Shown here: positions 2,300-41,012 of the stretch, in pieces | Layout: the number at the start of each line of letters is the position of its first letter | How positions within the stretch are numbered: position 1 is the first letter of the stretch | From: an uncultured virus (IMG/VR IMGVR_UViG_3300033153_010090) | Taxonomy: Duplodnaviria > Heunggongvirae > Uroviricota > Caudoviricetes | Reading direction: 5' to 3' (one strand) | Virus record (IMG/VR): IMGVR_UViG_3300033153_010090 | Length of the DNA: 64,000 nt | Position numbers and translations under genes: made by a program | The notes under the pieces: generated by a model | The model's database searches: none | Told to the model about the DNA's origin: nothing | What the model saw: only the letters and a program-made list of their open reading frames with translations

Positions 2300-5200
2300 G
2301 GAGCTTGCTCGGTCCCGAGACCGAACTCTTTTCCGTAAGCCATGCCCGGGATGGGGTGCCTGCTGTGGATGTTGGACTTCCAGCCCTGGGCTGCACCATC
2401 TTCCAAACTGGTCTTCAACCTCGTGGCCTGCATTCTGGCCAGCCAGTCCGTCTGCATCTCCAGCGGCATGATGTTGACCCCCTTCAGGATGGGCGTGTGC
2501 TGCACAGGCTTCTTACCTGCTGAGAGTTTACTGTTGAAGCTGTTGATCTCCGAGGTGGCTGTGGTGTCTCCCCTCAAAAGCCCGTAGTGGGAACCCGGGT
2601 CGTTCACCGCGCTGAGGTTGGTCAGTGAACGGACCACCACCTCCGCGTTCCTGCGATGGAGGGGGGTCTTCTTGTTGTAGACCGCCACGATCTCGTCGGT
2701 CAGGTACCGCTGCACGGAACCGATGCCGGTGAGCGGAAGCATGTGACGGGGGTTCTTCGGACCAGACGACAGGGCGTCCCCCCGCTTCACTGCCTGTCCT
2801 TGCTTCACCGCCAGCTCGTTTCGGCCTGGAACAAAGTGGCGTTGGCCACCCACCTGCACATTCCAGCCACCAGCTGGGTCCTTGTCGACCTTCTCGATCT
2901 TGCCGGCCATGGTGGATAGCGTAGCCGCGCCGGCGACCTTCTCTGGGAGCTCGACCAGCTGCTTCAGCCTATCGAACTGCCCAACTGCGTGGGCGCTCTT
3001 CGACCCAGCGACACCACCCTCGTGGAAGGAACGGAGAACCAGCTGGGTGGTGGGCTCGCCGAGGGCCTGGGCTGCTTTGATCCCGACGTTGTCCCCCTTG
3101 GGAAACTGCTGACCGTCCTCATTCAGACCCATGCACTTGGCACAGATTCCCGAACCGTGGGCGCACTTCAACGGCGTCCGGACAGGAATCTCCTTCACCT
3201 TGTTGTTCTTGAGCCGGGTCATCACCTCGGGAGTCACCAGGGTGCCCGCCGGGATCTTCCCCTTGTCCTTGCCCCCCTTCACCCCGAACCTTATCTCCTT
3301 CGTGGTGAAGCGATCCAGCGCGTTGGTATCGTCTACGCCGAAGGTGATGCCCTTGGACGTCTCGCAGTCATCGGCGGTGACCACCTGGTTGATGGCCGTG
3401 TTGATCATCTGCTTCGAAAGAGCACCAGGCAGCTCAGTGCCTCGTCCCTTACCGATCATACCCATGCGAGCACCGTGCATGGCCGTCCAGTACTGACCTG
3501 CCGACAGCCCCTCGGAGTAGGACTTGGTGATAGGCACGGGCACCGTCTTCCCCGAGCTGTCGAGCACGAGCATGGGAGCGATAGCGAGCTGCTTAAACTG
3601 GTCCCAGCTTCCACGGGAGCCGGACTTCACCCAGTCATACATCCGGTTGCCCGAAGTCTGCATCTGCTTCTTGGTGCGGTCCGAGATGACCTCGTCAGCC
3701 TTTGTGTACAGCTTGATGACAGCGTCGTTCTTTTGCTTCTTCGTCATCTTCGACGACCGGATCTTGGTTTCGGTCGCCTTGGCTGACCGAAGAACTCGGT
3801 CCCGCTCTGTACGGTTGGGTGCGAAGTCCTCGAGCCCCATGGAGAACCCAGTCGCGTACTCGTTTCCAAGGTCCTTCAGATTGTCAGTGGTCTGAGCGTA
3901 GTCTCCCTTCTTCTTGCGAGCCACCTCAGACAGCTTCTTGGAGAGAACACTCTTCGTCATCTCGAACTTAGGATCTGTGAGCATCTTGCTGTCGCGTACT
4001 TCTTCCGGCAGTGAGTTGTGAAGAAGAAGCCGACCCACCGTAGTCTTCACCGGTTTGGCTGCGGTCTTCACAATGCTCTTCGGGTCCTCGATCTTCCCAC
4101 TTATGTTCTTGATGGTGACCACATCGGTCATGTCAATCTTGCCGAGGTGTGCAGCCTTGGCGGCCTCCGCCGGAGTGGCGAAGACATGCTTGGTCTTCTT
4201 CCCCATCTGACTCAGCTTGAAGATACCGAGAGCGGCCTCGTGGTCGGGCTTGTAGGCAATGTCACCCCACGACTGGCTGAACAGATTGTTCGAGGGGAAC
4301 ATCTTGTGAGCTTCCTTCACCGCCGCAGGGGTGACAGGAACAAAAGCGCTCATGGTGTCGCCGTCAAAGTCTGCGTTGTACCCCGACGTGACGAGCGGGT
4401 GAATCTTGATGGTCTTCCCCTCTACCAACTGCGGACGGAAGGCCTGCACACCCTGCTTGTGCAGCACCGGGTCACGCTTCAGAAGGACAGGTCGGTTCGA
4501 TGCTTCGATCTCGAGCGCGCGCCGGGCGGTCGGTGAGTCTTCCTTGATGTGCTTCTGCGCCTCCAAAGGAGAAAGACCCATCCTCACCATCCGAGCGACG
4601 GTGAAGGGCTTGTACATCTCAGAAGCCGCCTTGCGGGGGAGGCCCACCTCATCCAGATTGAGCGTGGGGTCCGGCACAATAGTACTGCGCATCGACATGT
4701 CTTGCCGACGGCCGATCACCTTGTCCTGGAAGAAGCCCAGCTTCGGTGGCTTGCCCCGCGGCCCTGCGATCTGTTCCACGATGCCGGAACGATGCCGCCG
4801 CTTGTAGGTCATGCCCGTAAGATTCAAAGCCTTCAAGCCATCGTACAACTCATTGACGAGTGGGTGCCTCTCTTCCTCTGGCATACCCTTGTCGAAGGTC
4901 TTCAACTGGTGGTTAGGAGCACCAACGCCCCCTGCATAGATGCCGTTCAAGTCTGCTTCGTTGAGGTCACCATTAGGCATCACTGAAATAGGCCGCATGT
5001 TCGCGGGCAACACGGGCACGTACTTCATCGTGTAGGCCTCCTTCGGGGAGAGGCCTGCGGTCTTCAGTGCACGGAGAAATTTAATCTTCTTGTTGGCGGT
5101 GTCGAGCTTGGCACCACGAAGATCGGCGACCGAGTTCTCCAACGAGCCCAGATCCTTCTCCACATCGATCTTGGACAGAGCACTCACAACGGCCTTGGCA

Positions 5201-8200
5201 CTTGTCTTCCCCTCGATCTCGACCTTACCCTCCATCACGCTACCGAACTCCTTTGTGTTCAGCCCAAGCAGAGTCCGTACGGGCTTCTCGAAGGTGGGGT
5301 TGGGCATGCGCTCGGAGAGCTTGATGTGGGCCCACTTGTCACCGAACCGACCCTTAGGCCAGCGGGTACCAGTAACAACGGGGTCGAAGAGACCATCCTT
5401 CTCCGGGGTCGCATCCTTGGCGCGCAACCGCCGGCCCGGGTCTTTGATCTCCCCGTTACTCAGGGCAAGTGTGCCCTTGTCAGTAAGGGGCTCAAGCACC
5501 AAGGAGTTGCCGTCCTTCTTCACGTTAACGCCGGCGCCCCGGAGCATGGACTCGAACTTCTTGTAGACGAAGGGAACCCTGGGTGGAGGGATAGGCTCAC
5601 CCGTCTGCATCTTTGCCCACAACTCGTCGTTCATGTCCGACTTGATAGTCTGCATCTCCCGAACGTTCGCGGTCGCACCGTGAGCTAACAGAGCGTACAT
5701 GCCGCTAGCGTCCATGGACTGACCCCCGTGAGGGCCACCGCGCTGTGGCGTCATGTTCCCCGTGTAGGTATCGCGGGAGCGAGCGGACAGCTTCTTCTCC
5801 GCCGTGTGGTGGAGCTTGAGAATGTACTGCTTGCCCGCCAGCACCTTCTCCTTGAAAGGCTTCTTGGTCTGTGGGTCGAACATCTCCTCGGTAGCAGAGA
5901 GTCCGTGTTGCTTGAGCTCCGCCATCACCTTCGCCGCCTGGTCAGGGACATCAGGGTCGAAGTTGTTGGTGGCGTAGATCTTACCCGTCTTCTCCGCGAT
6001 CTTTGATGCTGCGGTCTCGAACGCCTGACCAATGTTGATGCGGCCCGGAATACCAGCGGGGTTCAAGAGAATCTCGGCAGCGGTCCCGTCTTTGAACGTG
6101 GGCATCTCAACGTCGGCCAAGACAGAGGTGACGATGCCCTTGTTACCGTGCCGGCCGACTACCTTGTCTCCTACCTCGGCGGGGGTCTGGGTCTTCACAT
6201 AGACCGTAGTGTCCTTGCCATGCTTCACGACCTTGGAGACCATGCCCGGGTAGTCCTTCTCCCAGGTCTGCGGCCGGGCACGAACCGGCTTCGCTGCCTT
6301 GCGGGAGAAGAGAGCGAGCTGCTTCTGCTCGGGGGTGAGTAGTTCCTTCTTCAGCTCACCAATGAGAATGTCCCCGGACTCTACGAGTTGGCCAGGCCTG
6401 ACGACTGCATCGTCGTCCAACTTGTCAGCCTGTGCCCTGGTGACCTTACCTGCAGTCTCCGCCAAGAACTTCCTCTTGTTGAGGATGGTGTTCTCATCGG
6501 AGCGGGTGGCCTGGCGGTGAAGGTGCTCGGAGGTGAGCTTCTTGGCCGCAGTCTCCGAAATGACGATGCCGTCCTCGAAGTTCAGCCCCTTCCAAGGCAT
6601 GTACGCAGTGCGCAGGTTGGTGCCCAGGGATAGTGTTCCGTCCCTGGTGAAGGATGTGTCGGCCACAGTCTGACCAGGCTTCACCTTGTCCCCCTTCTTC
6701 ACCAGGGGGGTGGAGTTGACCACGCTCTTGTCATCGTTCAAGGGGAAGTCGTCGTAGAGCTGCACCTCATGGCGCTTGCCCTTTCCATCCTTGACCATGA
6801 TGCTCTGCTTGCCTACGCGCTCGATGGTGCCAGCGACCGGGGAGTGGTGGGCACTGAGCATACCCACAGCCTTCTCGAACGTGCTGCCACGGTCACCGCG
6901 GGTCTGAACCAACGGCTGCTCTCGGTGGACCAAAGGCACGGCCTGCTCAAGCTGACGAGAGGCCACCATGCTCCGGTTGCCCTGGTCGTTCTGCAGGAAG
7001 GGCACCATGTTGGAAGAGACGTCGTACATCCCCTTGGTAGAGTCGAAGACGTAGTCCACCTTCTTCGGATCCAGCAGCATCATGTCACCGCCGGTCTCCA
7101 CAGCCTCCACCTGCTTGGAGCGCGGAACGAGCTTCCCATTCACCTTCTTGAACTGATCCGCGAAGGCGATGTTCGCATTGAGGGCGGCGCCCGGGCCAAC
7201 CATCTCCTTCTTCCCTGTCTTCAAGTTCACGAGGGGGATCTTCAGGTCCTGCCCCACCTTCCGTGCCCCCGAGGAAAGCTGGGTCACTGCACCAATGCGC
7301 TTCCCCTCAGGCGTGTGGACGGGGTCCAGGAATCCAGTGTGACTCGGGTTGATCGACTGAGCAGCGAGAGTGATCCTCCGCTCTGAGTCGATACCATGCT
7401 GCCCGAGGATGGTGGTCTTCCGTGCGCCGACCAAGAACCCCACAGGGTTACGTTGGTCCGACCGCTCCGAGAAAGATGAGTTGGTGAAGAACGATTTGAC
7501 TGGCTTGCCGAAGGTGTCCGGCGTGACGATGTCGGTGACCTTGTCCTTGCGGTCAATGTTGTTCTTCAGCTTCCTCGAGATGTCGTAGCGAGCGTCCTTG
7601 CTCAGGCGCTCCTGCATGAGGTCCTCGGCCGACCACAGCGCCTTGAACTCTAGAGAGTCCCGGTCGTCAGGCTTGTCCTCTTGGCGGGACACCCGCAGCA
7701 ACTTGCCTGCCCCACTGAGCAGAGCTTCACCGGACACCTTGTCGAAGGGCTGGCCCAGCGTCTTGGCGGTGGTGTCCTTGAGCAACTTCGTGTTGCCGAA
7801 TGTCTCCTTCACGTGGCCACGGATCTCATCCAGGTTATCCGAGGTCTTCCCCGTCATCGCCTTGTAGAGCTTGCGGAGGGCCTGGCCTTCGTTGACGTCC
7901 TTGTTGGCCTCGAAGACCTCCGACCCCCAGGTCTTCTCCATAGCCTTGTCGTCCACACCCATAGCCTTGAGCACCGGGTAGACGGGGACGTTGGAGTGGT
8001 TGTAGCCCAGGGTCATCTGCCGCTTGGCAGGATTGAAGTCCATGTCGAACCCCAACCCTTCGGCCAGGTTCCACTGCGACGACAGCTCACCATTGTCCTT
8101 AACCCGAGTGTAGACCCCAGATTTCAGACGGAACTGATTGCCGACCTGCCACTCGTTGCCATCCACGATGTGACTGTAGCGGCGTGTGATCTTCGGTAAC

Positions 8201-33998: not shown

Positions 33999-34136
33999 AG
34001 CTAGCGCCTGATGCGTTCGAGGCGCTAGACCCTGACGAGCTCCGACTCCTGGCCGATGCGGCAGGGGTAGGGTACAAGGGGCTCACCGACGATGAGCTGC
34101 GAGCCAAGCTCGAACAAGCCTCCCAGTAACCTTCAA

Positions 34137-34170
34137 GCGTCCGCCTCCTACTCAGGGGGCGGGCGCATTT
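34137..34170 (+). terminator. Hairpin terminator
   Basis: GCGTCCGCCTCCT-ACTC-AGGGGGCGGGCGC-ATTT. Confidence 0.55.
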
Positions 34171-34184
34171 GGTATCATCAAACC

Positions 34185-34487
34185 ATGGACCTGAAGATTG
34201 CCAGCCCAGAGCGGCGCGCGGATGCACGGTTGCGGAGGATCATCAGCATGATCGCCTGTGAGCGAAAGCATCAGCAACGCCGGTGGACGGACGAGGCGGA
34301 CAAACGAAGGACACCAGCTGACTGGATTGCTGTGCTGTCGATCTTCATCGGCAAAGCAGCTATGGAGACCCCGCTCTACCAGGCGAAGCTCTCTACCACC
34401 AGCTTCAAGAAACGCATCGTTCAGATCGCGGCCATTTGCATGGCCATTCTCGAGGCCATCGACGAAGGCGGAACTGATGAAGGCTGA
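34185..34487 (+). CDS. MazG-like all-alpha fold protein lacking the acidic motif
   Basis: ER.HQ..RW, DWIAVL..GK, IVQIAAIC.AILE pattern. Confidence 0.55.
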   Translation: MDLKIASPERRADARLRRIISMIACERKHQQRRWTDEADKRRTPADWIAVLSIFIGKAAMETPLYQAKLSTTSFKKRIVQIAAICMAILEAIDEGGTDEG

Positions 34488-34818
34488 GAACTACGTCGTC
34501 TCCATGACGGCATTTGAGACTGCGCTCATTGCTCTGGTTCTGATGGGGGTGACCGCCATCGTTGGTGTCGGGACCGGCTTCTACTTCGGCGCCCGCCTCG
34601 CCGCCGCGGGAGTCGTGGACCACACAAACGAGGTGCTTCAACTGTGCAACAAGGTCGTCGACCACGAGGATGATCGCGTGACCGCGTGGAAGATGAACGG
34701 TGAGAGCTGTCAAGACGAAGTGGAGCGGTATCGCACCTGGCTCACCGACGTCGAAGACTCCACAAAGCTGAGAGCCACAGTGGCACACCCCAAGCGGACC
34801 AACCGCGGAGGGCAGTGA
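34477..34818 (+). CDS. Hypothetical membrane-anchored protein
   Basis: N-terminal hydrophobic helix. Confidence 0.65.
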   Translation: MKAENYVVSMTAFETALIALVLMGVTAIVGVGTGFYFGARLAAAGVVDHTNEVLQLCNKVVDHEDDRVTAWKMNGESCQDEVERYRTWLTDVEDSTKLRATVAHPKRTNRGGQ

Positions 34819-34821
34819 GCG

Positions 34822-34859
34822 GGCCCGGCAGGTGTAACAACCTGTCGGGCCTCTTTTTT
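34822..34859 (+). terminator. Intrinsic terminator between the replication block and the convergent tRNA array
   Basis: GGCCCGGCAGG...CCTGTCGGGCC-TCTTTTTT. Confidence 0.8.
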
Positions 34860-34862
34860 AGC

Positions 34863-34948
34863 TGGCAGAGGGTAGAGGAGTCGAACCCCCAACCTTTCGG
34901 CCGCCCCGGTTTTCGAGACCGGTTGCCACCCACGTAGCAGTACCCTCT
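34863..34948 (-). tRNA. tRNA-Ser(CGA)
   Basis: Cloverleaf, loop CT-CGA-AA, long variable arm, GCCA. Confidence 0.9.
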
Positions 34949-34953
34949 TCATA

Positions 34954-35025
34954 TCGGGGTGGGCGGGTTCGAACCGCCGACCTCTCGGTCCCCGACCGAG
35001 CGCCCTACCACTGGGCCACACCCCG
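34954..35025 (-). tRNA. tRNA-Pro(GGG), C33, no encoded CCA
   Basis: CGGGGTG acceptor, loop TC-GGG-GA. Confidence 0.88.
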
Positions 35026-35090
35026 TTGTCGCTCACTGACCTCCTTCTCGTGACACACAAACCTCGTTGTTGCTCACCAGTGATCAGCTA

Positions 35091-35164
35091 TCGGGATGGT
35101 GGGGCTCGAACCCACGACCTCCGGCTCCCGAAGCCGGCGCGCTACCAACCTGCGCTACATCCCG
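35091..35164 (-). tRNA. tRNA-Pro(CGG), no encoded CCA
   Basis: Loop TT-CGG-GA. Confidence 0.92.
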
Positions 35165-35241
35165 TGGTCGGAGAGACAGGGATTGAACCTGCGACCCCCG
35201 GCTCCCAAAGCCGGTGCTCTACCAAACTGAGCTACTCTCCG
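35165..35241 (-). tRNA. tRNA-Pro(TGG)
   Basis: Loop TT-TGG-GA, ACCA. Confidence 0.95.
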
Positions 35242-35245
35242 ATAA

Positions 35246-35337
35246 TGGCGGAGCGTGAGGGATTCGAACCCCCGCGACCCGTGAAGGCCGACCTCGGGTT
35301 AGCAACCCGGCGCTTTGCCAGACTCAGCCAACGCTCC
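35246..35337 (-). tRNA. tRNA-Ser(GCT)
   Basis: Loop TT-GCT-AA, long variable arm, GCCA. Confidence 0.92.
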
Positions 35338-35343
35338 GTAGGA

Positions 35344-35454
35344 CTAGAGCGCTGGCGTACTCGGGGGTGGGTACGAGGAGGATGAGGGCGAGGGCAGACG
35401 ACCGGCGTTGAAGTGGTCGACAAAGAACAGAGCTGCCATCGTGTAGCGGAACAT
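35344..35454 (-). CDS. Leader peptide of tRNA unit 3 (MFRYTMAALFFVDHFNAGRLPSPSSSSYPPPSTPAL)
   Basis: AGGAGGG RBS; 12 of the last 16 codons are Ser/Pro; stop lies 6 nt before tRNA-Ser(GCT). Confidence 0.8.
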   Translation of the reverse strand: MFRYTMAALFFVDHFNAGRLPSPSSSSYPPPSTPAL

Positions 35455-35474
35455 GATGTTCCCTCCTACCTTTC

Positions 35475-35502
35475 AGTATCGGCATCTCCGTCGAGATGTC
35501 AA
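35475..35502 (-). promoter_or_regulatory. Sigma70-like promoter of tRNA unit 3
   Basis: TTGACA-N16-GATACT. Confidence 0.7.
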
Positions 35503-35510
35503 CAAGAAAT

Positions 35511-35586
35511 TGGGGTGACCGACGGGGTTTGAACCCGCGACCTTCCGGGCCACAGCCGGACGCTCTACCACTGAGCTACGGCCACC
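35511..35586 (-). tRNA. tRNA-His(GTG)
   Basis: Loop CT-GTG-GC, G-1 encoded, CCCA. Confidence 0.95.
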
Positions 35587-35589
35587 ACA

Positions 35590-35666
35590 TGGTGATGCCG
35601 ACCGGGCTTGAACCGGCTCTCACCGGCTTGAAAGGCCGGCGGCTCGACCCCTTCGCCTTCGGCACC
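35590..35666 (-). tRNA. tRNA-Glu(TTC), atypical D arm
   Basis: Loop CT-TTC-AA, A at position 8, ACCA. Confidence 0.8.
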
Positions 35667-35669
35667 ACA

Positions 35670-35745
35670 TGGTGGAATCGGAGGGACTCGAACCCTCGAC
35701 CCCCTGTCTGCCAGACAGGTGCTCTCCCAGCTGAGCTACGACCCC
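35670..35745 (-). tRNA. tRNA-Ala(GGC)
   Basis: Loop CT-GGC-AG, G3:U70. Confidence 0.95.
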
Positions 35746-35746
35746 A

Positions 35747-35856
35747 TACCGACCCGTTGACTTGGCTGCTGGCTATTGGCACCGCGCACGGGTCAACACG
35801 CGCTACCGGACCAGCAGTTGCCCCTCCGCTCCTGTTCGCGACCAAGAGCTTCGGTA
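35747..35856 (-). ncRNA. Unclassified structured RNA (~110 nt) between two tRNA-Ala genes
   Basis: Nested pairings TACCGA/TCGGTA, CTTGG/CCAAG, CTGCTGG/CCAGCAG, GCGCG/TGCGC. Confidence 0.45.
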
Positions 35857-35934
35857 TGGTGGACGGGAAGGGATTCGAACCCTCGACCGGCTGGGTGCAA
35901 ACCAGCTGCTCTCCCGGACTGAGCTACCGCGCCC
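35857..35934 (-). tRNA. tRNA-Ala(TGC)
   Basis: Loop TT-TGC-AC, G3:U70, one bulged acceptor base. Confidence 0.9.
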
Positions 35935-35937
35935 ACA

Positions 35938-36012
35938 TGGTACTCGTGGCGGGAATTGAACCCGCGTTACCGGCGTGAGAGGCCGGCGTCCTTACCCCTA
36001 GACGACACGAGC
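35938..36012 (-). tRNA. tRNA-Glu(CTC)
   Basis: Loop CT-CTC-AC. Confidence 0.93.
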
Positions 36013-36036
36013 ACAAACCTTGATCAATCCCTCCTT

Positions 36037-36112
36037 TGGAGCTGGTGAGAGGACTCGAACCTCCAACCTGCTGATTACAAATCAGCTGCTCTACCAGTTG
36101 AGCTACACCAGC
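36037..36112 (-). tRNA. tRNA-Thr(TGT)
   Basis: Loop TT-TGT-AA, TCCA. Confidence 0.95.
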
Positions 36113-36115
36113 ATG

Positions 36116-36180
36116 CGGGGAGCACGAGGATCGAACTCGCAACACCCCCGGCCCAGGGCGTTACCCCTAGCGGACTCCCC
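36116..36180 (-). ncRNA. tRNA-like RNA without a canonical anticodon loop
   Basis: Acceptor GGGGAGT/GCTCCCC, T arm GCGAG-TTCGATC-CTCGT, anticodon arm reduced to CCCT-GGGCC-GGGG. Confidence 0.6.
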
Positions 36181-36184
36181 GAAC

Positions 36185-36260
36185 TGGAGCTGGTGGAGGG
36201 AGTCGAACCCCCGGCCTGCTCATTACGAGTGAGCTGCTCTACCTACTGAGCTACACCAGC
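36185..36260 (-). tRNA. tRNA-Thr(CGT)
   Basis: Loop CT-CGT-AA. Confidence 0.95.
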
Positions 36261-36458
36261 ATCGCCCTTTCTGTTCTCCAAGATTCCTTTGCACGTCTTG
36301 CACGTCACTTCGCCGTCGTGTCTGGTGTGAGTGATGTATGTCTTCCAATCCAACACGATCCCACACAAAGTGATGTCTGCATCTTCAGACCCATGAGACG
36401 GACCGTACAGGGTGTCTTCTTTTGCTCTCACCCTTCGGACTGTATACCGCACATTCAC
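36243..36458 (-). CDS. Small zinc-binding protein (71 aa) inside the tRNA array
   Basis: AAGGAGGG + GTG; H...TLCG...VTCKTC; stop lies inside tRNA-Thr(CGT). Confidence 0.65.
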   Translation of the reverse strand: MNVRYTVRRVRAKEDTLYGPSHGSEDADITLCGIVLDWKTYITHTRHDGEVTCKTCKGILENRKGDAGVAQ

Positions 36459-36469
36459 AGCGCCCTCCT

Positions 36470-36545
36470 TGGAGCTGGGGACCGGGTACGATCCGGTGAC
36501 CTCTCCCGTACCAGGGGAGTGCTCTACCAACTGAGCTACCCCAGC
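36470..36545 (-). tRNA. tRNA-Thr(GGT)
   Basis: Loop CT-GGT-AC; T loop ATCGTAC. Confidence 0.92.
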
Positions 36546-36548
36546 ATA

Positions 36549-36620
36549 TGCCCGAACCTGGGTTTGAACCAGGGACACCCGGCGTGTCGAGCCGGAGCTC
36601 TACCACTGAGCTACCCGGGC
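36549..36620 (-). tRNA. tRNA-Val(GAC), C33, no encoded CCA
   Basis: Loop TC-GAC-AC. Confidence 0.88.
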
Positions 36621-36622
36621 AC

Positions 36623-36698
36623 TGGAGCACGTGACGGGGTTCGAACCCGTGACCTCAGCCTTGGCAAGGCTACGCTCTACCAACTGAGCTACACGCAC
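36623..36698 (-). tRNA. tRNA-Gly(GCC)
   Basis: Loop TT-GCC-AA, TCCA. Confidence 0.95.
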
Positions 36699-36700
36699 AC

Positions 36701-37108
36701 CTACGCTGCCTTCTTCATCCGGTCGAAGTACTGCCGCATCACCGACGCCTTCACCTCGGCGTACGTCAAACCCAGGGCCTGCGCCATGGGCCAGAAGCAC
36801 TGCTTCATCGTACGCTCACGTCCGTCTGCCTTCTCGTAGAGATCGAGCACTGAGCACTGCACACGCCCCTCGAACCGCAGATCACCCTCGAGCTCTTCGA
36901 TGAGGCACGATGTGTACCCGTTGCGCTTGCGATTGGCCGCGGTGAGCGGAGCCACCTTCGCCAACAGGTCCTTGAGCGCTGCACGCGCACCCTCGTCGAG
37001 CTTCTTGAACTCGCCCCCGTACTTGACGTACAGCTCGTCGACCTTGTTGCGCACGACGTCGTGCTTCCAGTTCATGCGGAACTTCTTGCCGCCTACGGTG
37101 ATCAACAT
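36701..37108 (-). CDS. Hypothetical protein inside the tRNA array
   Basis: AGGAGAGGGAG RBS, phage-like codon usage. Confidence 0.75.
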   Translation of the reverse strand: MLITVGGKKFRMNWKHDVVRNKVDELYVKYGGEFKKLDEGARAALKDLLAKVAPLTAANRKRNGYTSCLIEELEGDLRFEGRVQCSVLDLYEKADGRERTMKQCFWPMAQALGLTYAEVKASVMRQYFDRMKKAA

Positions 37109-37121
37109 CTCCCTCTCCTGT

Positions 37122-37337
37122 TCAGCTTGCGCTGAGCTGCAGTCCTCGTCCCAAGACGAAGAGGTTCTTGGCCAAGCACCGGACGACCTTGCCCGGCGCC
37201 TTCTCCACCATCACAGCGTCGAGGCCACGATCTGTGGTGTACCCGACGACCTTGCCGTTGAACGGCCCCTTCATACGACATCCCTTCTTCGTCCGCACCG
37301 GAGTACCGACGGGGAAAGCAACTTTGACACTCATCAC
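37122..37337 (-). CDS. Small beta-barrel (KOW/SH3-like) hypothetical protein
   Basis: AAAGGAGG RBS; FPVGTPVR...GPF.GKVVG. Confidence 0.6.
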   Translation of the reverse strand: MMSVKVAFPVGTPVRTKKGCRMKGPFNGKVVGYTTDRGLDAVMVEKAPGKVVRCLAKNLFVLGRGLQLSAS

Positions 37338-37350
37338 GGCCTCCTTTCTT

Positions 37351-37427
37351 TGGTGGGCTCGGAGGGAATCGAACCCCCGACATGCCGATTAAGAGTCGGC
37401 TGCTCTACCTAGCTGAGCTACGAACCC
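37351..37427 (-). tRNA. tRNA-Lys(CTT)
   Basis: Loop CT-CTT-AA. Confidence 0.95.
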
Positions 37428-37428
37428 A

Positions 37429-37506
37429 TGGTGGGGGCGGTCGGCATCGAACCGACGACCTCCCGGTTAAAAGCCGGGTGCTGCTGCCGCGCTGAGCTAC
37501 GCCCCC
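37429..37506 (-). tRNA. tRNA-Lys(TTT)
   Basis: Loop CT-TTT-AA; irregular D stem. Confidence 0.9.
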
Positions 37507-37612
37507 TAGCGCTTCAGTCGCCCCGGTTTCAACCGTTCCCACGTGTCCTCAGTCATCAGCACAATGTCTCTCCTCGGAAACCACGGACTCTTCAACCACT
37601 CGAAAAAACTCT

Positions 37613-37690
37613 TGGTGCCCTCGACAGGACTCGAACCTGCGACCTCCACGTCCGGAGCGTGGCGCTCTGAATCCACTGAGCTACGAAGGC
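37613..37690 (-). tRNA. tRNA-Arg(CCG)
   Basis: Loop CT-CCG-GA. Confidence 0.95.
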
Positions 37691-37693
37691 ATA

Positions 37694-37771
37694 TGGCGCC
37701 CCCGGTAGGATTCGAACCCACGACCCGCCGGTTAGAAGCCGGCTGCTCTAAATCCACTGAGCTACGGAGGC
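37694..37771 (-). tRNA. tRNA-Arg(TCT)
   Basis: Loop CT-TCT-AA. Confidence 0.95.
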
Positions 37772-37812
37772 GCAACTTGTTCATGCCGATCTCCTCCGTC
37801 GCCTGCCAACAA

Positions 37813-37887
37813 TGGTGGGCGCCCAGGGATTCGAACCCAGGACCGTTCGGTTATGAGCCGAGTGCTCTACCGCTAAGCTATGCGCCC
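37813..37887 (-). tRNA. tRNA(CAT), probably Ile2 (lysidine); elongator Met not excluded
   Basis: Loop CT-CAT-AA; GGGCGC acceptor typical of Ile2. Confidence 0.8.
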
Positions 37888-37907
37888 ACAACACCATCTC
37901 GTCTCCT

Positions 37908-37982
37908 TGGAGCCTGTACTCGGGTTCGAACCGAGGACATCCAGCTTGGAAGGCTGGCGTTCTACCACTGAACTACACAGGC
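37908..37982 (-). tRNA. tRNA-Gly(TCC)
   Basis: Loop CT-TCC-AA, TCCA. Confidence 0.95.
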
Positions 37983-37990
37983 TCATCTAG

Positions 37991-38064
37991 TGCCCAGTGC
38001 AGGGTTCGAACCTGCGCCCTCCGCTGTGTGAAAGCGGCGCTCTACCAAACTGAGCTACCCGGGC
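37991..38064 (-). tRNA. tRNA-Val(CAC), no encoded CCA
   Basis: Loop TT-CAC-AC, 3' A-CTA. Confidence 0.9.
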
Positions 38065-38081
38065 TCACTCCTTTCGATCTC

Positions 38082-38132
38082 GAGGAGGGAGGCTGGCGGG
38101 TCCAGCCATCTGTGACCTCAGCCTCCCTCCTC
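38082..38132. repeat. Long hairpin spacer
   Basis: 14-bp perfect stem GAGGAGGGAGGCTG/CAGCCTCCCTCCTC. Confidence 0.8.
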
Positions 38133-38137
38133 ACAAC

Positions 38138-38214
38138 TGGTACCCCGGGGTGGAATTGAACCACCGGCCCCTCGCTTATCAGGCGAGTGCTCTAGACCCC
38201 TGAGCTACCGGGGC
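38138..38214 (-). tRNA. tRNA-Ile(GAT)
   Basis: Loop CT-GAT-AA. Confidence 0.95.
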
Positions 38215-38259
38215 GAATACTCCCCGGGCGGTAGGCCCGGGGCGCACCGCCCATCAAAC

Positions 38260-38334
38260 TGGTAGCGGCGGAGGGATTCGAACCCTCGACTTCCGGGTTA
38301 TGAGCCCGGCGAGCTACCACTGCTCCACGCCGCA
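38260..38334 (-). tRNA. Initiator tRNA-fMet(CAT)
   Basis: 1:72 mismatch, three G-C pairs in the anticodon stem. Confidence 0.92.
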
Positions 38335-38346
38335 TCACCAACTCCT

Positions 38347-38422
38347 TGGAAGAGGCGGAGGGGCTCGAACCCCCAACCACCAGGATCAAAGCCTGGTGCT
38401 CTACCTGTTGAGCTACGCCTCT
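38347..38422 (-). tRNA. tRNA-Gln(TTG)
   Basis: Loop CT-TTG-AT. Confidence 0.92.
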
Positions 38423-38426
38423 AACC

Positions 38427-38502
38427 TGGCTGGGGCGGCAGGGATCGAACCTGCGACCTTCCGGGTCAGAGCCGACTGCTCTACCAGCTGAGCTACGCCC
38501 CA
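38427..38502 (-). tRNA. tRNA-Gln(CTG)
   Basis: Loop CT-CTG-AC, U1-A72. Confidence 0.92.
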
Positions 38503-38511
38503 TCATCAACC

Positions 38512-38590
38512 TGGCACCCCGAGCAGGACTCGAACCTGCGACCTCCTGATTCGTAGTCAGGCGCTCTGAATCCAACTGAGCTACCGAGGC
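38512..38590 (-). tRNA. tRNA-Arg(ACG)
   Basis: Loop CT-ACG-AA. Confidence 0.95.
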
Positions 38591-38600
38591 ACAACAAAAG

Positions 38601-38679
38601 TGGCGGGGCCGACGGGATTTGAACCCGCGGTCTCCTGAGTGACAGTCAGGCGAAGACGGCCAGACTCTTCCACGGCCCC
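38601..38679 (-). tRNA. tRNA-Asp(GTC)
   Basis: Loop CT-GTC-AC, GCCA. Confidence 0.95.
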
Positions 38680-38766
38680 ACAAGGTGGTGGTCGCAGCGT
38701 AGGTGTCCGTCAGCCAGGTGTCGTTACGGTTTGTCCGTGGTCGGGATCCCAGAGCTGGTGGACAGT

Positions 38767-38895
38767 TTACGCTGCCCTGGGATCTCGAAAAGGATGCTGT
38801 CCCTCGATACCGCGGACCGCAACCATCTTCGCCACGGCTGTTGCCGTAGCGGTTCTGGCTTCTTTGCTGGTCCGTATGGTTTGCACGAGTGACAT
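38767..38895 (-). CDS. Leader peptide of tRNA unit 2 (MSLVQTIRTSKEARTATATAVAKMVAVRGIEGQHPFRDPRAA)
   Basis: ATG 7 nt after the -10 box (probably leaderless); 34 different codons in 42; covers all 23 downstream tRNAs. Confidence 0.75.
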   Translation of the reverse strand: MSLVQTIRTSKEARTATATAVAKMVAVRGIEGQHPFRDPRAA

Positions 38896-38902
38896 CTTCT
38901 TC

Positions 38903-38932
38903 AAGGTAAAGGATTGTGGTTCTGAAAGTCAA
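38903..38932 (-). promoter_or_regulatory. Sigma70-like promoter of tRNA unit 2
   Basis: TTGACT-N18-TACCTT with A-rich upstream DNA. Confidence 0.6.
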
Positions 38933-38981
38933 CAACCTTTTTCTCGTCGCTACTCTTTTTTCGACGAGGTTCATATATATG

Positions 38982-39052
38982 AGTGCGGTACTGGATTCGA
39001 ACCAGTGTAGTTGGGGTTGCAACCCAACACCTCGCCTCTCGGACAACCGCAC
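38982..39052 (-). tRNA. tRNA-Cys(GCA), no encoded CCA
   Basis: Loop TT-GCA-AC, U73. Confidence 0.9.
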
Positions 39053-39053
39053 A

Positions 39054-39139
39054 TGGAGGAGGGTGAGGGATTTGAACCCCCGGAACTTTCGCCCTCACGC
39101 TTTCTAAGCGTGCGCCTTCAACCACTCGGCCAACCCTCC
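39054..39139 (-). tRNA. tRNA-Ser(AGA)
   Basis: CACGC-TT-AGA-AA-GCGTG, Ser-type body with long variable arm. Confidence 0.88.
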
Positions 39140-39141
39140 AC

Positions 39142-39219
39142 TGGTACCGGGAGAGGGAGTCGAACCCTCAGAGAACTGGGTTTTGAATCCAGCGCGTCTA
39201 CCAATTCCGCCACCCCGGC
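39142..39219 (-). tRNA. tRNA-Leu(CAA), short variable loop
   Basis: Loop TT-CAA-AA, Leu-type D arm. Confidence 0.9.
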
Positions 39220-39305
39220 GCTATACTCCTTTCGATCCCTCAACGACATCTATCTTGAGGGAGGCGCAAGGCCCCCCAGGTGTCGACCCGGGGGGCCTTC
39301 TTCTT

Positions 39306-39382
39306 TGGTACCCGGCCCGGGACTCGAACCCGGAAACTCTCGGACCTGAACCGAGCGACTGTGCCAGTTCGCCTAGCCGGGC
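39306..39382 (-). tRNA. tRNA-Leu(CAG), short variable loop
   Basis: Loop TT-CAG-GT. Confidence 0.88.
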
Positions 39383-39388
39383 ACATGA

Positions 39389-39469
39389 TGTAGCGGGATG
39401 GATTTGAACCACCGACCTTTCGGTACTCGGGGGTTACAGCCCCGTGCCTTACCACTCGGCCACCGCTAC
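39389..39469 (-). tRNA. tRNA-Tyr(GTA), no encoded CCA
   Basis: Loop CT-GTA-AC, variable arm, 3' A-TCA. Confidence 0.92.
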
Positions 39470-39472
39470 ACA

Positions 39473-39561
39473 TGGTGTCGGAGGAGGGACTTGAACCCAC
39501 ACGACCCTTTCGGGCCACCGGCTCCTCGGGCCGGCGCGTCTACCAGTTCCGCCACTCCGAC
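39473..39561 (-). tRNA. tRNA-Leu(GAG), C33
   Basis: Loop CC-GAG-GA, long variable arm. Confidence 0.9.
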
Positions 39562-39595
39562 ACATCATTCTTTCTCGTCGCCACTCACCTCAGTT

Positions 39596-39673
39596 TGGTA
39601 CGGGTGAAGGGACTCGAACCCTCAGAGACCCGGGTCTTAAACCCAGCGCATGTACCGATTCTGCGACACCCGC
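39596..39673 (-). tRNA. tRNA-Leu(TAA), short variable loop
   Basis: Loop TT-TAA-GA. Confidence 0.88.
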
Positions 39674-39678
39674 ATGGT

Positions 39679-39754
39679 TGGTGGGCCGGGGCGGATTCGA
39701 ACCGCCGACGCGCGGCTCTTCAGGCCGCCGCTCTACCGACTGAGCTACCGACCC
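39679..39754 (-). tRNA. tRNA-Phe(GAA)
   Basis: Loop CT-GAA-GA. Confidence 0.95.
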
Positions 39755-39816
39755 GCATAAGCGGATGGCGCAGCCGATAAATCGAGTTGTGAGCGTCTTC
39801 GTCATCAGTGCCCTCA

Positions 39817-39891
39817 TGGCAGGCGGCCAAGGAATCGAACCTTGCTGACGGCTGGATTTGGAGTCCGACCCGCTTACCCAGAGCGCCGCCC
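39817..39891 (-). tRNA. tRNA-Trp(CCA), non-canonical compact fold
   Basis: Loop CT-CCA-AA, G73-CCA, no 8/9 connector, extended anticodon stem. Confidence 0.8.
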
Positions 39892-39896
39892 AAAGG

Positions 39897-39972
39897 TGGC
39901 TCCAGGGGAGGGACTCGAACCCCCGACCAGGCGGTTAACAGCCGCCCGCTCTACCAGCTGAGCTACCCTGGA
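39897..39972 (-). tRNA. tRNA-Asn(GTT)
   Basis: Loop CT-GTT-AA, U1-A72, GCCA. Confidence 0.95.
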
Positions 39973-39982
39973 ACAGTTGGGG

Positions 39983-40102
39983 CTAGCGCCAGCTCGTATT
40001 CAGTCGGGGATACAAAAATAGGGAGTCGAGACAAAGAAGTAAGGAGCTCGACGTGGGGGATCGAGGAGTGGTGCGTGCGATGATGGTCTGTTCGGTACGC
40101 AT
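39983..40102 (-). CDS. Leader peptide of tRNA unit 1 (MRTEQTIIARTTPRSPTSSSLLLCLDSLFLYPRLNTSWR)
   Basis: AGGAG RBS; all six Leu codons plus Cys, Phe, Tyr, Asn, Trp and Ser codons; stop lies 10 nt before tRNA-Asn. Confidence 0.82.
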   Translation of the reverse strand: MRTEQTIIARTTPRSPTSSSLLLCLDSLFLYPRLNTSWR

Positions 40103-40119
40103 GGCTGTCTCCTAGTTTC

Positions 40120-40148
40120 AGGATGCACAGTCACATTCGATCTGTCAA
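40120..40148 (-). promoter_or_regulatory. Sigma70-like promoter of tRNA unit 1
   Basis: TTGACA-N17-CATCCT. Confidence 0.65.
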
Positions 40149-40645
40149 TACCAATTTTGAATGGCCAGATAAATACCCGCGGTCAAAGATGAGGCAATGA
40201 CAATCCACCCGGGTATGCGTAGCCACCAAGGGGAGATACCAAAGTCCGCCGCGGCCTTCTGCAGGTCAGTGAACGAACTGCTACCCCACGACCCAACCCA
40301 CAGGTCAATGAGGCCCCCACCGAGAACAACGAGCCACCCGGCCCACATCCAGTCAGGCCAGTAGCTGAAGAACGGGAAGGCCACTGCGGGGATGATGTTG
40401 GCAAGTCGCGGAGCCAGACTGATCCATCCCTGCTCGTGATCTCGCATCGGCCGGTACAGCGTCTTGCTGTTGCACGCCCACCGCCAACCGCCTTTGTACC
40501 GGTGCGGGATGACCTTGATCTCCCAGCTCTTCACCCCAACAAGGTGGTCCGCCACGACGACGTGAAGGAGCTCATGGATGTAGGCCCAGAAGAGGAAGGT
40601 GGGAACGAACCCGACGACCAGGATGATGACGAGCTGGATGATCAT
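40145..40645 (-). CDS. Membrane protein with HExxH (M50/zincin-like metallopeptidase)
   Basis: IHELLHVV, ISLAP, several transmembrane segments. Confidence 0.65.
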   Translation of the reverse strand: MIIQLVIILVVGFVPTFLFWAYIHELLHVVVADHLVGVKSWEIKVIPHRYKGGWRWACNSKTLYRPMRDHEQGWISLAPRLANIIPAVAFPFFSYWPDWMWAGWLVVLGGGLIDLWVGSWGSSSFTDLQKAAADFGISPWWLRIPGWIVIASSLTAGIYLAIQNWY

Positions 40646-40652
40646 GGCAGTA

Positions 40653-40961
40653 TCAGTTCCAACCCTCGACGCCAGTGACGAACTTCTGACGCTTCACGTT
40701 CTGTGTCATCGGATTCCACTTGGCGGTCTGAGTGACACCGCGCGCGTTGGTGCCAGTGCCCTTGCTCACAGCCTGCTGGATGGTCTTGCCGTGCCCTTTG
40801 AACGACGGAGTGAACCCAGAAGACTTCAAGGCCTTGGGCTTGAACAGCTTGCCAACACCCTTGGCGGCGCCAGCAACCATCGAGCCAAGGCCCGCATCCT
40901 TCTCGAAGCCATTGATGTACGCGAGCTCGTCGACAAAAGCTGCCATCATGATGGGATTCAT
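40653..40961 (-). CDS. Small putative virion internal protein
   Basis: AFVDELAYINGFEKDAG motif; AAAGGAG RBS. Confidence 0.7.
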   Translation of the reverse strand: MNPIMMAAFVDELAYINGFEKDAGLGSMVAGAAKGVGKLFKPKALKSSGFTPSFKGHGKTIQQAVSKGTGTNARGVTQTAKWNPMTQNVKRQKFVTGVEGWN

Positions 40962-41012
40962 AGTCAGCTCCTTTCGTGCCTCAGTGATACCACGGGTGGA
41001 GGTGGGGAGGAA

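Follow-up and report, generated by a model that had tools for sequence, protein, structure and literature searches.

Codon-matched leader reading frames before the tRNA units of a large uncultured phage may gauge decoding capacity for the tRNAs that follow

Why do phages carry near-complete sets of tRNA genes, and how do they manage when a host lacks certain tRNAs or destroys them? A tRNA array in the 64,000-nt stretch of DNA analyzed here (hereafter the window; uncultured virus record IMGVR_UViG_3300033153_010090, Caudoviricetes) may bear on both questions. Global growth-rate control is the usual account of how tRNA genes are matched to codon demand, and the question raised by this locus is what a short open reading frame (ORF) is doing directly before a block of tRNA genes. 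The window carries 38 tRNA genes on its minus strand, from 39972 down to 34863, and the array is split by three modules, each consisting of a promoter-like site, a short ORF and a tRNA unit. On the sequence evidence given below, we lean towards reading leader 1, the ORF before the first ten tRNA genes (unit 1), as a translated cis-acting mini-gene that gauges the decoding capacity for these ten genes, and as one of three such modules.

The anatomy of leader 1 (Table 1) places it immediately before the tRNAs: its stop codon is 10 nt from tRNA-Asn, the first of the ten tRNA genes. Its AGGAG is positioned as in real phage genes; a ribosome-binding core of at least 4 nt was found at positions -20 to -4 in 23 of the 33 ORFs taken as genes. 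Only five of the 43 TTGAC(A/T) sites in the window have a hexamer of the form nAnnnT 16–18 nt downstream, and three of these five precede leaders 1, 2 and 3. Transcription of leader 1 would start at a position that we infer from the sequence of this region. The original prediction, made from the letters of this DNA, had written out the codons of the 3' half of 40102..39983, and this string agrees exactly with the DNA; the ten tRNAs behind it also have the identity and order that had been listed. All six Leu codon types and the single Cys, Phe, Tyr, Asn and Trp codons to which it had drawn attention are present in the ORF: there are seven Leu codons (TTA, CTT twice, CTC, CTA, TTG and CTG), and TGT, TTT, TAT, AAT and TGG occur once each. 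Under the codon usage of the phage genes, the probability that seven Leu codons include all six types is 0.0035. Codons 1–14 contain none of N, W, F, L, Y, S and C, in agreement with the earlier claim that the head of the ORF is free of the amino acids of the unit.

We evaluated the match between leader and unit under fixed wobble rules (G34 reads C and U; C34 reads G; U34 reads A and G; A34 reads U, C and A) and defined coverage as the number of tRNAs in the following unit for which the ORF contains a readable codon. Leader 1 covers 10/10 unit 1 tRNAs, and at least one readable codon per tRNA lies within its last 20 codons. In a six-frame control over the 64 kb, full coverage of unit 1 was reached by 117 of 56,480 stop-free segments of 38 codons, in 14 places, and by three of 79,604 segments of 20 codons, two of which are leader 1 itself. 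When the bases of leader 1 were shuffled, the sequences that stayed open reached 10/10 in 99 of 14,158 cases with mononucleotide shuffling and in 10 of 14,661 with dinucleotide shuffling. The other two frames of the same stretch cover 6/10 and 7/10. The result holds when U34 is restricted to A-ending codons (24 of 10,739 shuffles reach full coverage); coverage falls to 9/10 if A34 reads only U, as tRNA-Ser(AGA) is counted only if A34 reads TCC. The proposed correspondence between the codons of leader 1 and unit 1 is thus borne out, being complete, specific to the frame and kept in a related genome described below. Unit 1 itself (38981-39972) gathers all the tRNAs for T-starting codons (Phe, Leu-TTR, Ser-TCN, Tyr, Cys and Trp) together with Leu-CTN and Asn, and the tRNA array is partly sorted by codon box.

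Leader 2 covers all 23 tRNAs behind it, namely 13/13 in unit 2 and 10/10 in unit 3a; full coverage was reached by 3/9,356 and 5/13,032 shuffles, and the other frames cover 14/23. Under the strict U34 rule, five of 53,729 six-frame segments are complete and none of 7,082 shuffles; the five segments are taken to be leader 2 itself, because the standard rule located five such segments there. Leader 3 has a Pro/Ser-rich tail, and unit 3b behind it consists of Ser and Pro tRNAs (coverage 5/5). Its PPP run is written CCA CCC CCG, which are the Watson-Crick codons of the three Pro tRNAs of unit 3b, and its promoter-like site was the only sigma-70-like match in a scan of 34500..41000. When the leaders were compared with units other than their own, coverage ranged from 2/5 to 7/10. 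When the whole-ORF shuffle values of leaders 1, 2 and 3 are pooled by Fisher's method, our arithmetic gives roughly 1e-5, a figure that leaves room for the post hoc choice of tests.

The choice among synonymous codons follows the same division between matched and unmatched tRNAs. Codon usage of the phage was taken from 31 ORFs (15,624 codons) chosen by length and high GC content at third codon positions (GC3); low-GC3 ORFs and those overlapping tRNAs were excluded, and two neighbors of the leader were added. In this set, TTA and CTA account for 1% and 6% of Leu codons, and TTT, TAT, AAT and TGT for 15–34% of their own boxes. In the two-codon boxes read by G34 tRNAs, the leader codons matched to the unit behind end in T in seven of seven cases (TGT, TTT, TAT, AAT, CAT, GAT and AGT), whereas codons whose tRNA is encoded elsewhere end in C in 12 of 14 (Fisher p 3.1e-4). 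Phage genes favor the C-ending form, and seven T-ending codons out of seven would have a probability of 2.4e-5 under their usage. According to a score resembling the codon adaptation index, the head of leader 1 (0.69) and leader 3 (0.75) show ordinary usage; the tail of leader 1 (0.43) falls within the lowest 0.2% of gene segments and leader 2 (0.52) within the lowest 0.6%. In our reading, slow codons decoded by G:U wobble suit a sensor of tRNA supply.

The window is a piece, with about 60% GC, of a large uncultured phage that encodes a DnaB-like helicase, a PolA-type polymerase, a UvsX-like recombinase and a tRNA nucleotidyltransferase; in the phage genome collection it had no close relative, the DNA matches being confined to tRNAs and the best PolA identity listed being 34.4%. 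The leader 3 alignment retrieved a 148-kb viral contig (L003) with a syntenic array of 37 tRNAs. A DNA motif scan yielded another contig, L010, which is identical to L003 in the aligned leader 1 region, and four stretches without tRNAs, which were taken as chance. Mean column identity between L003 and the window is 74%, 76% and 83% in the three leader alignments. At the -35 region of leader 1, TTGACAGATCGA is identical in L003; by our reading, the -10-like counterpart is CACGAT with a spacer of 18. All three modules are kept in L003/L010 with coverage of 10/10, 20/20 and 7/7, and the tRNA order of unit 1 is the same in both contigs, except that Ser-GGA replaces Ser-AGA. Among shuffles of the L003 leaders, full coverage was reached by 81/11,371 for leader 1', 1/8,233 for leader 2' and 607/11,497 for leader 3' (70/11,506 under the strict rule); the other frames cover 4–5/10 for leader 1' and 13/20 for leader 2'. 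The T-ending preference recurs in the two-codon boxes of L003, with 7/8 matched against 3/15 unmatched codons (p 0.0033). In leader 1', the third positions of the rare codons TGT, TTT, TAT, AAT and CTA are kept, and the core TCC CTA TTT YTS TAT YCC is conserved at the nucleotide level. As to the replaced tRNA-Ser, the copy in the window (39054-39139, minus strand) has the A34 anticodon AGA, and L003 has GGA at the equivalent place (1594-1685); both leaders use TCC. An A34 anticodon in tRNA-Ser is unusual for bacteria and phages.

The codon content of the leaders changes together with the tRNA content of the units. In L003, tRNA-Glu(TTC) and tRNA-Gln(TTG) lie behind leader 3', not in the leader 2 units as in the window, and GAA and CAA have been lost from leader 2' and gained by leader 3', in step with the relocated tRNAs. 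The hypergeometric chance of this pattern is 0.050 for the loss, with eight codon types lost, and 0.024 for the gain, with six gained. Tracking is partial for Pro-GGG, which is absent in L003: CCC decreases from three to two and CCG increases from one to three.

At the protein level, the sole homologue of leader 1 is P0006, a peptide of 38 aa with 66% identity (E 3.1e-6) found in a profile-free search of 1.84 billion representatives (MRTEHTIVERTIPRTASGSRLLCSSSLFLYSLLNTNWR). Its tail keeps L, C, F, Y, N and W, and the substitutions D>S, P>S and R>L in this tail each bring in a unit 1 amino acid. The first 14–17 residues lack any unit 1 amino acid in all three leader 1 sequences (window, L003 and P0006), and 15, 17 and 18 of their last 20 residues are unit 1 amino acids. 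Called homologues of leader 3 are P0004 and P0005, from two other lineages; they keep RLPSPS..SSYPPPSTP.L with an in-frame two-residue indel between them, and P0004 shares three amino-acid differences with a close variant in sediment metagenome contigs. Of the seven substitutions listed for close variants of leader 3, we read four as synonymous and three as non-synonymous, and second codon positions are unaffected; both promoter hexamers and the ribosome-binding site are unchanged, and the promoter flanks vary. Pfam gave no family for the leader peptides; the leader 1 alignment had no match in viral contigs, and the leader 3 alignment none in genome contigs. The neighboring 166-aa protein has homologues at 72% and 65% identity. 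No loci were found for it or for an 1141-aa protein in viral or genome contigs; metagenome contigs gave only two loci, 38% identical, and in L002 a plain promoter is followed by a single tRNA-Leu, with no leader. Two related metagenome contigs cross leader 1 without gaps. One 1.1-kb metagenome contig joins 35175-35255, near tRNA-Pro/Ser, to 39430-39657 and continues to leader 1; either it comes from a variant that lacks the bulk of the array, or similar tRNAs have been joined in assembly.

How could codons in a leader affect the tRNA genes behind it? The original prediction had pointed to a GTCGAG/CTCGAC stem followed by TCCCTATTTTT, and both elements are present; their reading as an intrinsic terminator did not survive. 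The 6-bp stem closes a loop of 16 nt and is 7 nt from the T-run, the site was not called in the terminator scan, the stem is unconserved in L003, and leader 1 folds no better than its shuffles (z 0.05). In the window and in L003, the scan found no terminator-like site in the leaders, and folding of leader 3 (z -0.21) and of the L003 counterparts of leaders 1 and 3 (-0.05 and 0.47) is likewise ordinary. Because only 6–12 nt separate the stop codon from the tRNA in leaders 1 and 3 of both genomes, there is no room for a hairpin between them. From the missing terminator call, the lack of folding excess, the unconserved stem and the short gap, we conclude that a classical terminator/antiterminator switch is not supported. 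An Rfam E-value scan of 34000..41000 gave only tRNA matches and sub-threshold noise, with neither a leader family nor a T-box. When all 78-nt stretches of the transcribed strand in the 64 kb were ranked by C minus G, leader 3 was joint first and leader 1 third (C/G about 2.1), and the same two leaders take first and joint second place in L003.

Leader 2 is structurally different. The folding z values of its region are -5.85, -4.45 and -3.90 in the window and -3.45 in L003, and two long conserved hairpins between tRNA units 1 and 2 (window 38680-38910, minus strand; L003 2505-2740) overlap it. Compensatory changes between the window and L003 were found in 8 of 48 consensus pairs; the hairpins are conserved but have no U-tract. 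Strong GC hairpins also occur in spacers inside the tRNA units (window 39305->39220 and 38137->38065, minus strand; L003 1414-1438). The L003 hairpin was called as a terminator on the opposite strand, and the flanking A-run suggests that the two in the window are likewise opposite-strand terminators; such hairpins may be stops for antisense transcription or processing sites.

The mechanism that we propose for leader 1 would work as follows. Ordinary codons make up the head of the ORF, and rare and G:U-wobble codons its tail, in which each tRNA of the unit has at least one. If the unit tRNAs are scarce, which could happen early in infection, with a host poor at decoding these codons or once the host has caused a loss of tRNAs, ribosomes would linger on the tail; if the tRNAs are plentiful, ribosomes would reach the stop codon before tRNA-Asn and leave. 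Occupancy of the unstructured, C-rich and G-poor leader RNA by ribosomes would then decide whether the polymerase passes into the tRNA genes. We infer that the leader is translated and that slow decoding favors read-through, fast decoding leaving a naked leader on which transcription would terminate; the net outcome would be demand-driven, self-limiting tRNA synthesis. The most likely route would be the masking of a Rho loading site by a slow ribosome, as in tnaC, although an output step of the Rho type that needs no hairpin is, for leaders 1 and 3, a rather doubtful part of the scheme. As a wider and still tentative proposal, large phages may run their tRNA genes as demand-controlled blocks, each with its own promoter and a codon-sampler mini-gene containing one slow codon, wobble or rare, per tRNA, whose summed dwell time gates transcription by masking a Rho entry site without any terminator hairpin.

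Several points weigh against this reading. With Watson-Crick pairing only, leader 1 covers 5/10 tRNAs, which is not significant; the match vanishes because the leader uses wobble codons. Its CTA has no cognate tRNA in the array, and this codon is kept in both versions of leader 1 though neither array has a tRNA-Leu(TAG). Other codons are also out of register with the tRNAs: leader 1' of L003 lacks TTA though tRNA-Leu(TAA) is present, L003 has no tRNA-Ala(GGC) yet leader 2' keeps GCC, and leader 3 has TCA yet the window has no tRNA-Ser(TGA). The coverage of leader 3, taken alone, is neither significant (0.10 in the six-frame control; 0.18–0.32 in shuffles) nor specific to the frame. Leader 2 has a poor ribosome-binding site and a start codon buried in the conserved hairpin; its start is possibly leaderless. 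The output step is also left without the usual structural signature, since terminator scan and folding found no terminator or antiterminator hairpin in leaders 1 and 3, and the excess of C over G may be a by-product of TNN and CCN codons, not a rut site. The strong ribosome-binding site of leader 1 might keep the leader covered despite fast decoding, and re-initiation might blur the signal. As to the statistics, unit borders, tail lengths and the co-variation test were picked post hoc on data already seen, and the DNA comparison is one of two lineages that are homologous rather than independent.

Four other explanations of the same features have to be considered. The leaders might be translated constitutively and sense nothing, the ribosomes merely shielding a naked 5' leader from Rho or RNases or aiding the processing of the first tRNA. 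The strong ribosome-binding site, the very short inferred 5' untranslated region, the unstructured C-rich RNA and a stop codon 6–12 nt before the first tRNA in both genomes would all fit such a shield; it gives no account of why every tRNA of a unit is represented, why matched codons take the rare U-ending form and unmatched ones the common form, or why GAA and CAA move with their tRNAs, and we regard it as unlikely. Control could also have the opposite sign, stalling uncoupling translation from transcription and causing premature termination, so that the unit is made only when its codons are well decoded, as in a positive feedback or commitment switch. The anatomy is equally compatible with this, and classical polarity works precisely by uncoupling-induced termination. 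The RNA behind a stalled ribosome, however, would consist of a few leader nucleotides followed by structured tRNA, a poor Rho substrate, and the C-rich stretch is the part that the ribosome covers; positive feedback on a supply gene has, moreover, no evident benefit. We judge the opposite sign to be improbable.

The remaining two concern what selection, if any, has acted on. If the ORFs encoded functional small peptides (arrest, membrane or regulatory), they would be conserved for their amino acids and not for their codons, and the conservation of LC..SLFLY..N..WR in leader 1 and of MFRYTMA...RLPSPS..SYPPPSTP in leader 3 could be so understood, as could the PPP run of leader 3, PPP runs being known to slow ribosomes. 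This explanation seems quite unlikely when it is set against the absence of a Pfam family match, the retention of the rare synonymous third positions of TGT, TTT, TAT, AAT and CTA in both DNA lineages, tail substitutions (S>P, D>S and R>L) that swap among the amino acids of the unit, and the co-variation of tRNAs and codons, which it leaves unexplained. Chance combined with composition, the view that the leaders are AT-richer, pyrimidine-rich spacers whose openness and variety of codon types are accidental, draws some strength from the position of the leaders in lower-GC spacers, from the composition-preserving shuffles in which leader 3 coverage is not significant, and from the selection of the observation after the sequence had been read. 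It appears very improbable: the shuffle values of leaders 1 and 2 were obtained with local composition kept, the signal is specific to the frame, three modules each have a promoter-like site, conservation of the open frames includes an in-frame indel and a called homologue at the E value given above, and the pattern recurs in L003.

The reading as a sampler of decoding capacity can be compared with known systems. Amino-acid attenuators of enterobacteria include trpL, hisL, leuL and pheL and the multivalent thrL and ilvL. The window leaders resemble them in having, directly before the genes concerned, a short ORF with its own ribosome-binding site, in codons whose decoding reflects what those genes supply and, on our reading, in using ribosome speed as the signal; several amino acids would be read at once, as in thrL and ilvL. 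They differ in that tRNA genes follow the leader, not genes for amino-acid biosynthesis or aminoacyl-tRNA synthetases, in that each isoacceptor of a unit of 5–23 tRNAs is sampled once or twice by wobble or rare codons without a run of a single codon, and in that leaders 1 and 3 have no mutually exclusive terminator and antiterminator hairpins with a U-tract. T-box riboswitches, too, tie expression to the state of specific tRNAs, which they recognize by triplets resembling codons within a 5' leader. Their recognition of uncharged tRNA is direct and needs no translation, they share a conserved fold, and the genes that they regulate are synthetase or amino-acid genes; leader 1, in contrast, has an ATG preceded by a ribosome-binding site, its signal is specific to the frame, and Rfam gave no T-box match. 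A leader-peptide attenuator is described for pheL (PMC3082878). For tnaC of the E. coli tryptophanase operon, a ribosome stalled on the leader peptide is described as blocking the access of Rho to a rut site adjacent to the ORF, with no intrinsic terminator (PMC8429421). Leaders 1 and 3 are C-rich, G-poor and unstructured, which would fit a Rho loading site but may simply reflect their codons, and Rho dependence would be assumed for them by analogy. They differ from tnaC in that no long spacer is present, the tRNAs beginning 6–12 nt past the stop, and in the likely signal, which would be tRNA supply at many sense codons and not free tryptophan sensed via the nascent peptide at a stop codon. 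For bmrB of Bacillus subtilis bmrCD, ribosome-mediated attenuation is reported by a small upstream ORF that responds to general translation speed (PMC4191407); that leader forms alternative stem-loops, contains an intrinsic terminator within its ORF and targets a drug exporter, and leader 1 has neither such structure nor such a target. A Phe-rich leader before E. coli tRNA-Phe genes was considered and dropped, as it is unsupported for K-12 pheV, in which the promoter directly abuts the tRNA. A full-text literature search, with most subscription journals outside its coverage, yielded no account of a leader peptide controlling tRNA genes, and what is new here is, on our best reading, the application of leader-peptide control to tRNA genes themselves.

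Is the design found in other phages? In a screen of eight upstream ORFs from three unrelated phages, the one ORF of Mycobacterium phage Phabba (cluster C) gave p 0.0053, and nothing fell below p 0.1 for CcrRogue (four ORFs) and BcepSaruman (three ORFs). The Phabba ORF has 14 Leu/Ser codons (MFALLSLSSSLRLS) and lies directly before tRNA-Ser(GCT), Leu(CAG), Leu(GAG) and Leu(CAA); its CTC, CTG, TTG and AGT match Leu(GAG), Leu(CAG), Leu(CAA) and Ser(GCT) behind it. A -10-like TACAGT is followed by 7 nt and the ATG, and a GC hairpin is located between ORF and first tRNA. The mini-ORF is near-invariant in Iota and Daffodil. Among 206 phage records matching the query, 204 span 80% or more of its length, and a literature search found no publication on the mini-ORF. 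It differs from the window leaders in its unrelated phage group, its much smaller length, its apparently leaderless start and its restriction to two amino acids.

Codon-matched leaders thus appear in unrelated phages, including cultured mycobacteriophages, and because the design is compact and readable from the sequence, it is directly testable. If the proposed role is true, decoding speed would feed back directly on tRNA gene expression with the resolution of single isoacceptors, and the sampler could have a second, built-in role in detecting the depletion or cleavage of tRNAs in the host. The codons of a leader would co-evolve with the tRNAs of its unit, with a wiring that is legible from the sequence, and phage tRNA arrays would be regulated supply circuits, not passive patches for codon usage. 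With its promoter, ribosome-binding site and some 40 codons, such a module could also be used to report, by natural means, on the availability of individual tRNAs.

Table 1. Locations of leaders, associated sites and tRNA units in the window, with counterparts in the related contig L003 and in cluster C phages
Feature	Location	Strand	Description
Leader 1 ORF	39983..40102	-	39 codons and TAG; peptide MRTEQTIIARTTPRSPTSSSLLLCLDSLFLYPRLNTSWR
Leader 1 promoter-like -35 hexamer	40143..40148	-	TTGACA; overlaps stop codon of upstream 166-aa gene
Leader 1 -10-like hexamer	40120..40125	-	CATCCT; 17-nt spacer; weak match (A2, T3, T6)
Leader 1 Shine-Dalgarno	40109..40113	-	AGGAG, 6 nt before ATG; L003 has GGAGG at similar distance
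Leader 1 putative sensor tail, codons 20-39	39986..40045	-	15/20 residues are unit 1 amino acids, in rare and wobble codons
tRNA unit 1	38981..39972	-	Asn-GTT, Trp-CCA, Phe-GAA, Leu-TAA, Leu-GAG, Tyr-GTA, Leu-CAG, Leu-CAA, Ser-AGA, Cys-GCA
Leader 2 promoter-like site	38903..38932	-	TTGACT, 18-nt spacer, TACCTT; TTGACT kept in L003
Leader 2 ORF	38767..38895	-	42 codons and TAA; MSLVQTIRTSKEARTATATAVAKMVAVRGIEGQHPFRDPRAA; weak ribosome-binding site; inside conserved long hairpin
Conserved hairpin 2, leader 2 to tRNA-Asp	38690..38776	-	basal stem holds last codons and UAA stop of leader 2
tRNA units 2 and 3a	35511..38679	-	23 tRNAs (13 in unit 2, 10 in unit 3a); three small protein ORFs interspersed
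Small ORFs within units 2/3a	37337..37122, 37108..36701, about 36455..36243	-	without Pfam or PHROG family
Leader 3 promoter-like site	35475..35502	-	TTGACA, 16 nt, GATACT; 10/12 matches
Leader 3 ORF	35344..35454	-	MFRYTMAALFFVDHFNAGRLPSPSSSSYPPPSTPAL; AGGAGG 7 nt upstream; stop 6 nt before tRNA-Ser(GCT)
tRNA unit 3b	34863..35337	-	Ser-GCT, Pro-TGG, Pro-CGG, Pro-GGG, Ser-CGA
GC-rich hairpin, array end	34821..34852		plus-strand terminator-like site; terminator for convergent plus-strand gene
L003 leader 1'	628..741		MHRAIQITTIPIKRDGRLSFLCSLSSLFLYSNSGWRL; TTGACA, GGAGG, stop 12 nt before tRNA-Asn
L003 leader 2'	2525..2647		open frame conserved
L003 leader 3'	6001..6117		TTGACG-16-GATAAT
Cluster C mini-ORF and GC hairpin	L012 9548->9504	-	before Ser/Leu tRNA genes
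Cluster C mini-ORF and GC hairpin	L014, L015 about 625-690		before Ser/Leu tRNA genes

Some minor features of the array can be added. The hairpin at the array end may have a role for the minus strand. The 72-nt spacer at 36113-36184 (minus strand), between tRNA-Thr(CGT) and tRNA-Thr(TGT), ends in a sequence resembling a T-arm and acceptor stem (GTTCGATCC...CTCCCCGCA); it was called neither by ARAGORN nor by the Rfam tRNA model, L003 has no such spacer, and it is likely a decayed tRNA gene. From our reading of the translations, the L003 array contains ORFs for a 202-aa protein with an HNH-like motif (3723..4331) and a 93-aa HU/IHF-like protein (7025..7306). The last of the small ORFs in Table 1 has Cys pairs (..TLCG..TCKTC..) and an AGGAGG site, is flanked by two Thr tRNAs and overlaps tRNA-Thr(CGT) at its end; five of eight substitutions listed among close variants fall at third codon positions, and it is therefore probably a real gene.

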